A stretch of DNA of 64,000 bases from Octopus vulgaris. Its lineage: Eukaryota. How positions within the stretch are numbered: position 1 is the stretch's first letter; the number at the start of each line of letters is the position of its first letter. A model generated the notes under the pieces. It was not told the origin of the DNA, made no database searches, and saw only the letters and a list, made by a program, of their open reading frames with translations. Shown one piece after another: positions 22,909 to 59,432 of this stretch. The translations under genes and the position numbers were made by a program. Location: assembly GCA_951406725.2 (NCBI GenBank), contig OX597822.1:105524001-105588000 (forward strand), written 5' to 3'.

Positions 22909-24037
22909 CGAAGTGCATTCCACAAGTTTTGAAATATTTTTAGGAGAGGCAATTATAAACTGTCCTAAATCATTGTAATTTTAGTATCTCATTACAATAC
23001 ATCTGATTAGCTAAAATGCTGATTCTTGTTACTCCAGATCGAAGTATACAACTGTAACAGATCTTTGCACACAGTCTTTCCTGTTACAGCTGACTAGTTT
23101 GAAGAATGCAGGAGGGACGAGACGACAATTTGACAACTTGCTAGGCAATAAAAGTTTATGTTAAACGGGGCAAAAACGTTAGAGAAACTGATGAAATGCC
23201 CTAGACTGCTTATGCATTTAATTTCTATGAGCAGAGCATGTTTCTCGCTAGCACAAATGGCCGGGCAAAGCAAGTGCACCGGGGAGCTCATGATGATCCT
23301 CTTTTTCCACAGCATCATCAACATCCACTGAGTTCCTTCTAAACAACAAAAAGTACTTTGTGGTGGTTTTGTAGAAGTTCTGGTACGGGTTTCGTAGTAA
23401 AATGACAGAGCACTTGGATTAGGGCAATCCACCATTCCGCAATTTCATCCTGGTTACCAACTACCCGACAGAGATAGGAGTCAACACTGTCACTCAGCCT
23501 CCCTACAGGCCAGACCTTGTTCCTTTGTGACTTTTGGTTATTAACCTCAAGCTGAAGGAGAAGTTGAAAGTGACCGTGACAAGGGACCTGAACACCTTTA
23601 TTTCCTTCTAAACAACAAAAAGTACTTTGTGGTGGTTTTGTAGAAGTTCTGGTACGGGTTTCGTAGTAAAATGACAGAGCACTTGGATTAGGGCAATCCA
23701 CCATTCCACAATTTCATCCTGGTTACCAACTACCTGACAGAGATAAGAGTCAACACTGTCACTCAGCCTCCCTACAGGCCAGACCTTGTTCCTTTGTGAC
23801 TTTTGGTTATTAACCTCAAGCTGAAGGAGAAGTTGAAAGTGGCCGTGACAAGGGACCTGAACACCTTTATTTTGGAGGACGTCGTTGGGGGTCTTCACGA
23901 AGTGACGCTGGACGCTATAACAGAGGCACTGAAGTCAGAGTATCCTAATTTGAAGTAGATTAAAATTTTGTATTTCTTTAAAAATTAATAAAAATCTCTT
24001 CTAAAAAAAATGCTCTAAAATTCTTGAATGCATCTTG
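22909..24037 (+). mobile_element. Degenerate, internally deleted mariner element with a 269-bp tandem duplication
   Basis: TA-CGAAGTGCATTCCACAAGTTTT / AAAATTCTTGAATGCATCTTG-CA TIRs; VTQPPYRPDL.P-CDFWL..KLKEKLK matches HPPYSPDLAPCDFWLFPKLK, present twice. Confidence 0.85.
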
Positions 24038-49410: not shown

Positions 49411-49792
49411 GGGATGTTGTCACTCGCTTTAAAATAGTACCTCTAAATCCCTCTGGCCTCATGTTATGCAAATGTACATTAAAAATGAGTGGATATGTTC
49501 AAACATAACAGGGAGTCATTATGGTGGATAATAAAAGAGAAATAGTTAGAACTGTCTGAGAAATACTGGTCTGAATGAGAATCACAGAACACGGACTGGG
49601 GATGTTGTCACTCACTTCGAACTAGTACCTGTAAATTTCTCTGGCCTCATGCTACGCAAATGTACATTAAAAATGAGTGGATATGTTCAAACCTGACAGA
49701 GAGGCGTTATGGTGGATAATAAAAGAGAACTGTTGATAGTTAGAAATGTCTGAGAAATACTGGTCTGAATGAGAATCACAGAACACAGACTG
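49411..49792. repeat. Diverged tandem duplication, ~190-bp unit x2
   Basis: Units start GGGATGTTGTCACTC at ~49411 and ~49599 and end GAGAATCACAGAACAC. Confidence 0.92.
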
Positions 49793-56663: not shown

Positions 56664-56720
<57 letters not shown>

Positions 56721-56725
<5 letters not shown>

Positions 56726-57085
56726 ATATAATTCGAGACAAAACCACTATTTTGCAAAACAAACAAGGAAAGACTTAATCAATACATAAAAATTTTTAAT
56801 ATAAAGAAATAAACCGCCACTACAATCGTTTCATGTCTTCAATGGCATTCGTCAGGTGGATTTTCGATCTCCTAATCTGTTTTAATTTATGAAGACATGA
56901 AACGATTGTAGTGGCGGTTTATTTCTTTATATTAAAAATTTTTATGTATTGATTAAGTCTTTCCTTGTTTGTTTTGCAAAATAGTGGTTTTGTCTCGAAT
57001 TATATTATATAATATTTTACTATAAAATTGGATTTAATCCTAAATCTGATTTTCCCCTGTAAATTTGGATTTCTTCCCTAATATT

Positions 57086-57090
<5 letters not shown>
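56721..57090. mobile_element. Non-coding Penelope-like pLTR insertion in (TA)n with perfect 121-bp inverted repeat
   Basis: Arms 56721-56841 / 56890-57010, 48-nt spacer; plus copy continues to ~57090; contains a hammerhead. Confidence 0.8.
56817..56859 (-). ncRNA. Minimal type I hammerhead ribozyme
   Basis: CCAC CTGACGA ATGCC attgaa GACAT GAAAC gatt GTA GTGG: full core, 4-bp stem I, stem II 4/5, self-complementary stem III ACGAUUGU, GUA triplet. Confidence 0.85.
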
Positions 57091-57124
<34 letters not shown>

Positions 57125-57217
57125 GAGATAATGGTGTCATTGAAACCCAAAGGTGTCAGGTATTGCTGAATAAGTGCTATAGACAGACCATAGTTAAGTT
57201 CCAGATTCGGTAATATT

Positions 57218-57374
57218 GCGAATAAAGGGTTCAACGTTGGTTCTATATCAGTGTGTGTATATAAGAATTTTTCCGTAATAAGATAAAAAACCAGCCTTGG
57301 TTTTTTATCTTATTACGCAAAAATTTATTATATATACACGCTGACATAGAACCAACTTTGAACCCTTTATTCGC
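57218..57374. repeat. ~76-bp-arm imperfect hairpin with 4-nt loop within a (TA)n-flanked insert (57121-57374)
   Basis: GCGAATAAAGGGTTCAA...AAAAAACCA gcct TGGTTTTTT...TTGAACCCTTTATTCGC. Confidence 0.92.
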
Positions 57375-59432
57375 TATATATATATATATATATACATTCA
57401 TTATATAAATCTACACACGCAAACACACACACACATATATATATATATATATCGATAGATTTTGTTATTCATTCTTCTTTGCTCTTTAGTAAACACTCTT
57501 TGTCAACCTTTGTTTCAGTGCATGAACTTAGTGGGTTGATAAAAACGAAAATGCTGGAGTAAGATGCGTGCTTGCGTCGATGTGGTTGACTAAACCCTTA
57601 AAATACTCTGCCTCGACAAAGTTGCATCCCAATGACTGGCGTCAATAAAATACTAAATGAGTGAGCGTTTGTATGTGCTATTGTGAACGAGTTTATGCCT
57701 ATATGTATACGTATATTCAGAAATACACAAATACATTATCCATATATATATATATATATATAACATGCATCCTAATCTTATTTTCCACTTCGGAAGGCTA
57801 TGTCTTGTGTTTAAAGAGTTTTGTCTTTATGTCCATTCAGAACTACTTTTTTTTTCTCTTTTGCAATGTTCCATTTTGTTAATGATTAAAAAACAAAGCA
57901 GATGGCAGGTTTCAAATTTTCGCACTTTATTTAATATTGTTTTGATGGTCTTAACATGGATGACTTAGCAAAAACGCCAGAAATTCGTGTTATTATCAAT
58001 AAAATTGGGTAAGTGACAGTTGCAAGTAATAAAATAACTAATATGGTAAACTTTTGTATGAAAATGTCTCTTGAAAAATTTTCAAGTGTTTTTAAATTCT
58101 TGGTGGATGTCATACTCTTTCGTTTTAAAAGCAAAACGATATTGGAAAAATGTCTTACCTAAGCAAAAAATATATTTGTTTCCCTTTTAGAAAGAAGATT
58201 TTCATTGGACAGATTCTAATTCGAGAATATTTATGCTTTTACTCGCTCTCGTTCGTTTAGAGGTATTTAAAGAATGCATTTAAAAATACGACTTAATTCT
58301 GTCAGTTTAGAGTTTTATGTAATAGTTCATAGCATGGGGTAGGGAATGCTAAGACCCTACCTATAATAACGAGATTGTAGCTATTACACTTCCTCCTTGT
58401 GTCGCAAATGTTTCTCGAAAGCCGGCAGTCGCCTGCATTCTTGTTTCACTTTCCAAATGAATCTTAGAAATTGAGAATATAAAATAAATCGATATTTATG
58501 CTGGTTATTTAAAATCACCATTATCCTATCATTTAAAGTACATTATAATGAGTGCTGTAGCTAAAGTATCTTTTATTACATTTTTAAATATATCACTGTC
58601 AAGATAAATCTTTTCTCTGTAAAGTGTGTCTATTATCAGGAGACGCATTAACAATGGCGTTCTTCATTTTGAAGTGCTGCTATCCATAGTCTTAATATCA
58701 CCCTGTATTTTGTATCAAGTTCTAACCTGTCTTGATTAATCATATACACTAATTCTTTAATTCTTGAACCATCGTGCCGCAATTAAATAAACCTATCTTT
58801 TATAACTTGTATTAGTTAGCGAAAATTTAATAGTGTAGAATATCTTTCCTCTTTGTTTCTTCTATAGAGATTATCATTAAGACCATGTATGTTATTTCTT
58901 TATTACCCACTAGGGGCGAATTAAGACCATGTATGTATTAGTGTCTGTATATACACACATACATACATATATATATATATAATCTCATTCTCACACATAT
59001 ATGCTTATGTTACATTCGCATGCCCATTCATACGTATAGGCATGTATATGTATCACTTATAATCATTGCAGATAGCCGTTCTTTCTTGCGTCCACAGTGT
59101 TTTCCAATGTTATATTCTCTTAGTAATCATCTAATCCTGTTATCAGATTTCTTTTTGGCAATTTAGTGTTGTGGAAAATTCTTCTTCTTGACATCCCGTT
59201 GGGCAATCAAGCAGATCTTAATTCAATATGAGTCCATTATTGCCGAAAGTGAAACTTAGAAAATACTATTATTAAATTCGGCATAGCGTGTAGCTGTTGT
59301 ATAGCAACCTAAGGCAGCCTGAATTATTGAAAAGGTCAGCCAGATCGGAAATCAGAGCACGTAGTGTTATCAACCTAAAGGTTTCCATAGACTCTAGTTG
59401 ATGTCTTTAAGTAACTAATAATCTAATTGTAA

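Follow-up and report, generated by a model that had tools for sequence, protein, structure and literature searches.

The 370-base insertion at 56721-57090 of the window, the stretch of 64,000 nucleotides of Octopus vulgaris DNA analysed here, is likely to consist of two head-to-head copies, both lacking the intron, of the leader (pLTR) at the 5′ end of a Penelope-like element (PLE), made through two target-primed reactions on a capped and spliced mRNA. The parts of this explanation that are read from sequence are the parent element, its intron, the exact loss of this intron, the clustered 5′ ends, the rule that a pair has one short and one tailed arm, and the microhomology at the junction. Spliced copies are notable since PLEs are known for keeping their introns. 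The value of the locus lies in family-wide evidence on template and priming; the hammerhead itself is ordinary.

The insertion and its hammerhead

The source genome is large (2.8 Gb) and rich in microsatellites. An earlier, sequence-only reading had described a perfect 121-bp inverted repeat in (TA)n with no coding remnant. The limits of the insertion match those it had given, no coding sequence is present within them, and the repeat is perfect and lies in (TA)n, its arms being 122 nt long (56720-56841 and 56890-57011, 100 % complementary, spacing 48 nt). The TA run makes up about 10 nt of each arm. The features of the locus are:

56667-56726, no strand: left target tract, (CA)n then (TA)n
56721-56894, minus: arm 1, the "short" arm; spliced leader, beginning 1-6 nt past the inferred start site and ending at the short 3′ end (family positions 69-244)
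56869-56894, minus: leader exon 1 (27 nt in copies starting at +1); in long copies the donor GTATGT follows
56868-56869, minus: exact splice junction GGAG/ATCG, without the 1.0-1.2 kb GT-AG intron
56817-56859, minus: minimal type I hammerhead, with its cut predicted between 56821 and 56820, behind GUA
56845, minus: rare U-to-C variant giving a C-A mismatch in stem II (2 exact genome matches)
56890-56894, no strand: microhomology TGAAG at the head-to-head junction, 5 nt, common to both arms (gap -5)
56890-57090, plus: arm 2, the "tailed" arm; hammerhead loop II to the long 3′ end (family positions 122-323)
57002-57015, no strand: AT palindrome ATATTATATAATAT at the short 3′ end, the inferred first RT start site, from its sequence and the ends that cluster here
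57012-57090, plus: tail on one side only, about 79 nt long; full elements extend it into the 5′ UTR, and their ATG lies about 57 nt beyond
57081-57123, no strand: right target tract, (TA)n

Two-copy tandem repeats are also present in the window, at 23333-23872 (269 nt, 98 %) and 49411-49792 (188 nt, 88 %). A second, older repeat family, with 1998 first-look candidates about 95 % identical, is represented at 57124-57379. It has the same layout in (TA)n, an inverted pair with a tail of about 90 nt on one side, and its longer members (L222, L235) contain a hammerhead-like core with a palindromic stem III (ACAGCTGT); it is likely to be another PLE family.

A scan of both strands of the window for type I hammerheads gave one match, at 56817-56859 of the minus strand (CCAC CUGACGA AUGCC AUUGAA GACAU GAAA CGAUUG UA GUGG). 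The core CUGANGA/GAAA/UH and stems I-III are present, and the complete core, the C-A mismatch in stem II and the self-complementarity of stem III (ACGAUUGU, duplex -5.8 kcal/mol) had all been correctly recognised from the letters alone. It had been called the best ribozyme in the window, but on folding predictions it is among the poorest of its family: the pairing value of stem II is 0.84-0.87 for majority copies but 0.01 for this one, and the probability that stems I and II fold is 0.01-0.26 against 0.69-0.97. Stem II is unformed in the prediction even without the antisense arm, and the window hammerhead is probably inactive. An exact search places the stem II C variant at two places genome-wide; among the 148 hammerheads collected, 91 have an intact stem II and two the C variant, and contigs of all four sequencing runs have the majority base. 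A source lineage carrying the variant was rejected, there being only two copies.

The hammerhead motif is not there by chance, because it is part of a repeat family: a 161-nt query gave 1103 first-look candidates in the genome, of which 40 were scored, the best being 98-100 % identical. Lack of the core in other copies had been named as evidence against a ribozyme, and these copies retain it. Across subfamilies the 4-bp stem II and stem I are fixed, loop II is variable, and stem III is mostly palindromic (ACGAUUGU in 109, ACAAUUGU in 38, ACAUUUGU, with a central mismatch, in 17, ACGAUCGU in 3 and others in 4). Covariation was no better than in shuffles (328/500), the stems being invariant and the rows having been chosen by core. 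In a more distant family (L160, L003:163-208) the core is CUGAUGA and stem III the perfect palindrome ACGAUCGU; the same place upstream of its hammerhead has no splice acceptor. Taken by itself, the 43-nt motif has no more stable a fold than its shuffled versions (z 0.21). Rfam at gathering thresholds gave no match in the insertion and below threshold only generic hairpin and miRNA models, the miRNA matches being rejected as generic hairpins.

The inverted copy does begin within loop II, and the sequestration of the ribozyme proposed on that ground agrees with prediction: minus-strand read-through RNA is predicted to form a single long hairpin, with a 122-bp duplex (z -27.8), abolishing stems I and II. 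The dimeric cleavage suggested by stem III does not suit this locus, as head-to-head arms are unable to form a tandem dimer in cis.

The parent element and its intron

The parent was found by walking upstream from family copies. From its start site it runs through an exon of 27 nt, the intron and the hammerhead to the short end and then the tail end; the ATG lies about 57 nt downstream of this, and the ORF is followed by a GT-rich 3′ UTR of 1.7 kb and a second pLTR. The full layout from intron to second pLTR was seen in two loci (L071 and L207), with a unit length of about 6.8 kb (L207). Uninterrupted ORFs of 837-851 aa were present in six of the 12 fetched regions, all of the sister subfamily; in the youngest subfamily none was seen intact. 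The single ORF has an RT followed by a C-terminal GIY-YIG, with the motifs YRDD and VVYK...YIG...R...H. DKG is changed to DKT, in SDKTRNLY, and the RWK counterpart is SRIKWKA, with K for R; the linker CxCX5C is CTCRDKSKC or CTCRDKSNC, CYLC (CxxC) and CRH (CxH) lie near the end, and CCHH is absent. The RT/GIY-YIG assignment is made from these motifs and from Atlas neighbours of the protein (at 0.95-0.98), some of which have RVT_1 and GIY-YIG in 21-49 % of members; Pfam gave no RT or GIY-YIG match to the parent ORF, and a PDB sequence search with it gave no match. The best protein homologs are 26-43 % identical and mostly unnamed, two being from Argonauta.

Insertion into (TA)n and a hammerhead in the pLTR are as expected of the Hydra clade, whose motif definition the protein fits, and the insertion is almost certainly derived from a PLE. 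The unit of about 6.8 kb departs from a description of the clade as "generally shorter than 3 kb", which in the available text of Craig et al. (2021; PMC8557442) is a tendency and not diagnostic. Between RT and endonuclease there is an Asn-rich low-complexity insert (L202:2910-5432 and sister copies); similar inserts are known in rotifer Penelopes, from the available text of Arkhipova (2013; PMC3846280). GT-rich internal repeats, about 350-650 nt long and 77-91 % identical, are common to the intron and the 3′ UTR in three loci (L033, L043, L061), and differences in intron length there arise from duplications of these repeats. The family was found in contigs of all four sequencing runs; no contig extends across the window locus.

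Long copies read GAG/GTATGT...TTTTAG/ATCG, and the window copy, with GAG/ATCG at 56869/56868, is exactly the spliced form. The pLTR intron is of the GT-AG type, 1.0-1.2 kb long, and ends just before the hammerhead. The donor GT is present in 24 of 26 intron-type loci, and the acceptor AG was located in 18 of the 26, 1.0-1.2 kb downstream (1.46 kb in one). Exact patterns of the youngest subfamily gave 214 spliced and 57 unspliced arms, and older subfamilies a further 653 spliced arms; at least 867 spliced junctions thus compare with 576 unspliced acceptors in all subfamilies, a rough ratio, as arms are counted and the patterns differ between counts. The spliced junctions recur across subfamilies. 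In those in which the exon ends TTGAAA (TTGAAA/AT) no bases are common across the junction, so a slip at microhomology does not explain them.

In a tree of exon 2 (168 rows) the spliced label requires 19 changes, of which starred branches force at least 10, and in none of the 200 bootstrap trees does a single change suffice. Six sets of identical rows contain both forms. The tree has only 135 columns, a small number of loci may be in it twice, and the labels could have been mixed by gene conversion. A one-time loss of the intron is rejected by the forced changes, and the loss is therefore recurrent. Of 30 loci with an ORF start, 10 are truncated and one belongs to another family; the remaining 19 extend as far as the hammerhead, and the acceptor is present in every one of them. 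Loci were chosen by searches requiring exon 1. This precise loss of a GT-AG intron is that of a processed retrocopy, and as judged from the copies the leaders were very probably made from spliced sense RNA. Of the two origins first offered for the locus, a truncated Penelope-like insertion or a non-autonomous element, the Penelope-like part stands; what is present is a spliced 5′ leader, not a random 5′ truncation, and self-propagation is unsupported.

Pairing of the arms and rival explanations

The 62 distinct short insertions comprise 47 two-arm head-to-head pairs, 11 solos and four complex cases. In 44 of the 47 pairs there is one short and one tailed arm, the other three being unclassifiable, and in older subfamilies (24 insertions) the same holds for 14 of 14 pairs. 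All 58 classifiable pairs thus follow one rule, with no short-short or tail-tail pair among them. A linked RT and tandem pLTRs had been suggested as objects of a genome search: the RT/GIY-YIG ORF is indeed linked, but no head-to-tail array occurs in the 62 and 24 insertions, which are head-to-head pairs or solos. A tandem non-LTR retrozyme is rejected on this account.

Arms overlap at the junction by 1-11 nt in most pairs, and by 5 nt in the window; in one locus (L018) they abut without overlap, the classic twin-priming pattern. Inserts between the arms are found in L002 (L002:1376-1494, in the window's contig near 583450-583570; 119 nt, no Rfam family), L006 (148 nt) and L106 (142 nt), and are possibly template switches. 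Divergence between arms is 1.27 % within loci (76/6000) and 1.81 % between loci (10207/564181), and the subfamily as a whole is young by the latter figure. The identity of the two arms at the window locus had been read as a sign of recent insertion; it carries little information on age, as 11 of the 47 pairs are identical and the probability for arms of this length is about 0.24.

The inferred start site is the A of TTCA+1CTTC. Among the first 30 spliced arms there was no exact extension past the A of TTCACTTC. Where the +1 A is intact, the element is broken off no more than 6 nt upstream in 44 of 49 spliced and 0 of 12 unspliced arms (Fisher 3.6e-9), a count that scores loss of the upstream hexamer, with a pattern that leaves out arms with C at -6, and in which arms of one locus are not independent. 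Of the 44 broken-off spliced arms, 24 have G at -1, where the element itself has C, and in five fetched cases (L117, L122, L134, L137, L212) the extra G directly follows non-element DNA. In twelve of these cases the junction is the same and the opposite arm could equally have templated the G; this agrees with, but does not prove, a base from the cap having served as microhomology, and without the twelve the count is 11/31 (p 0.010). Five of the 49 spliced arms (three loci) extend upstream of the inferred start, and in older subfamilies three of seven arms with an intact +1 run 2-7 nt upstream, so the start is not unique. With start site, cap and splicing all read from DNA copies, a cap-derived G and the start site as placed here are reasonably probable. 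The start A is called initiator-like after the general initiator consensus, and hammerhead numbering is likewise conventional. The same initiator-like TCACT is noted in a rotifer pLTR in the available text of Arkhipova (2013).

In the proposed mechanism, transcription would begin at this A and the intron would then be spliced out. The RT/GIY-YIG protein would nick both strands of a (TA)n tract, and reverse transcription would initiate from two internal sites of the RNA, which lie past the hammerhead and about 79 nt from each other. As these start sites also lie in the 5′ leader, cDNA from there would be just 180-255 nt of spliced leader. The cap may sometimes be read as an additional G at the cDNA end, and the two cDNA ends would join through microhomology. 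The source of ORF-bearing copies would be read-through RNA on which priming takes place in the 3′ pLTR, with the intron kept; such RNA may, at a guess, escape splicing through nuclear or co-transcriptional capture. The hammerhead would be carried along as a passenger without being cleaved in the RNA that is copied, and in the window copy a point change would impair it. Leader copies would be dead on arrival, and the window locus is probably inert. Whether the two primers acted on one RNA is evenly poised: 23 arm variants are shared within loci and 76 are unshared, and since the unshared outnumber the shared a single template for both arms is not proven. More tentatively still, and with the balance slightly against it, these stubs may record the PLE mechanism itself, a dimeric RT/endonuclease using two fixed internal sites, one per strand, on one capped, spliced sense mRNA.

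The best-surviving alternative, though unlikely, starts from the same spliced RNA and has the cDNA fold back and prime itself, the second arm being trimmed at the AT palindrome by endonuclease or target annealing. The junction microhomologies and near-palindromic centres are in accord with this, as are the closer similarity of arms within loci, the 23 shared variants and the target-like palindrome at the short end. The tailed arm also reaches further 5′ in 25 of the 44 pairs (short arm 16, tie 3). However, in 11 of the 44, the window locus included, the short arm extends 20 nt or more beyond the 5′ limit of the tailed arm, over sequence that the latter lacks, which excludes fold-back of one tailed cDNA for those pairs, and a cDNA begun at the short end is unable to provide the tail. 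The antisense-template form of fold-back is the self-priming idea in the available text of Arkhipova (2013); such a template would stay unspliced, yet the spliced junction is often in both arms.

It is quite improbable that the short copies form a non-autonomous, retrozyme- or SINE-like element, which lost the intron once and spreads from its own short masters. Near-identical short copies do exist by the hundreds, the stem II variant common to two loci could mean a secondary source, and retrozymes derived from pLTRs have been proposed in the available text of a preprint (bioRxiv 2026.07.22.740005). Spliced and unspliced forms nevertheless alternate in at least six sequence types, junctions vary by locus save for one recurrent type, and the head-to-tail arrays are absent. 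Far less probable is a functional, regulated ribozyme or hairpin RNA at the window locus with the antisense arm as its switch; the core is complete and the long duplex could enter small-RNA or editing pathways, but stem II is predicted to be unformed with or without that arm, and the same layout recurs at unrelated loci by the dozen. That the insertion is a MITE or an assembly artefact is scarcely credible: it is short and non-coding with long inverted termini in TA, but the family is continuous with an RT/GIY-YIG element, its ends are asymmetric, its centre and junctions variable and its intron loss exact, so that fixed symmetric termini, a constant centre and a DNA-transposase parent are all lacking, and against an artefact stand the contigs of four out of four runs, none of which spans the window locus.

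Significance and comparison with known systems

Three puzzles of PLEs appear in the available literature, namely why introns stay, how head-to-head pLTRs arise and where the tail comes from. PLEs are described as intron-retaining, with an antisense template proposed as the reason, and the choice between sense and antisense template is left undecided in the available text of Arkhipova (2013). The present family shows spliced sense RNA to be an efficient template and inverted pairs to obey a strict one-short-one-tailed rule, and it supplies intact ORFs, a candidate transcription start site and two candidate RT start sites. Leader pairing by one site per strand, if true, would explain inverted pLTRs, the one-sided tail and intron retention together and would overturn the antisense-template explanation; spliced mRNA would give dead leader copies only, and unspliced read-through RNA the ORF-bearing copies. 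Many genomic "solo" minimal hammerheads may be leader retrocopies rather than working ribozymes.

Precedents exist for pLTRs in inverted orientation, for tails on one side only, for hammerhead pairs on opposite strands and for an intron adjoining the hammerhead. A literature search, mostly outside subscription papers and without the two founding PLE papers, found no report of abundant spliced-leader copies or of the pair rule. The comparisons that follow draw on the available text of each source.

Penelope of Drosophila virilis (Schostak, 2008, PMC2377424; Cervera, 2014, PMC4209133) likewise has a start site, a short first exon and an intron in the pLTR, with the intron end adjoining helix I of the hammerhead. 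Its intron is 75 bp and described as kept on transposition, whereas here the long copies keep the intron and spliced leader copies are at least equally numerous. The head-to-head layout is also that of minimal hammerheads paired on opposite strands at distances of 100-700 bp (Cervera, 2014) and of inverted pLTRs (Arkhipova, 2013), seen there, in contrast, as truncated PLEs or antisense self-priming products; no mention of the splicing state of such pairs was found in what is available of the two papers. Processed L1 retrocopies and twin priming (PMC11702581) share the extra 5′ G ascribed to the cap and inversion with microhomology. In L1, however, priming is at the poly(A) end and there is hardly any overlap between the two cDNAs, whereas here the starts are fixed and internal and the overlap reaches 175 nt.

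For Poseidon of Anolis, PAc, of a related clade, Frangieh (2024; PMC11167929) reports internal initiation at two sites bounding the tail, with both strands cleaved and extended, a predicted dimer, and insertion that needs no ribozyme cleavage. Two fixed 3′ ends bounding a tail, an AT-rich target and a hammerhead uncut in inserted copies are thus common to both. The start sites lie in the ORF in PAc and upstream of the ATG here, and the one-site-per-arm rule and spliced products were not found in the available text of that paper.

The closest comparison is with the Hydra-clade PLEs of Craig et al. (2021), such as Penelope-x_HM and Hydra-1_Obim. The present family is like these in its C-terminal GIY-YIG, DKT, CxCX5C and CxxC/CxH without CCHH, and in its (TA)n targets, 4-bp stem II, palindromic stem III, inverted 5′ copy and one-sided tail. 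Its hammerhead differs from every one listed there, that of the Octopus bimaculoides Hydra family in the supplement included, which makes it a different family. It is also unlike them in its unit of about 6.8 kb (under about 3 kb there), its tail of about 79 nt (30-40 there), its 1.7-kb 3′ UTR, 1.1-kb pLTR intron and Asn-rich insert, and its spliced leader copies by the hundreds.
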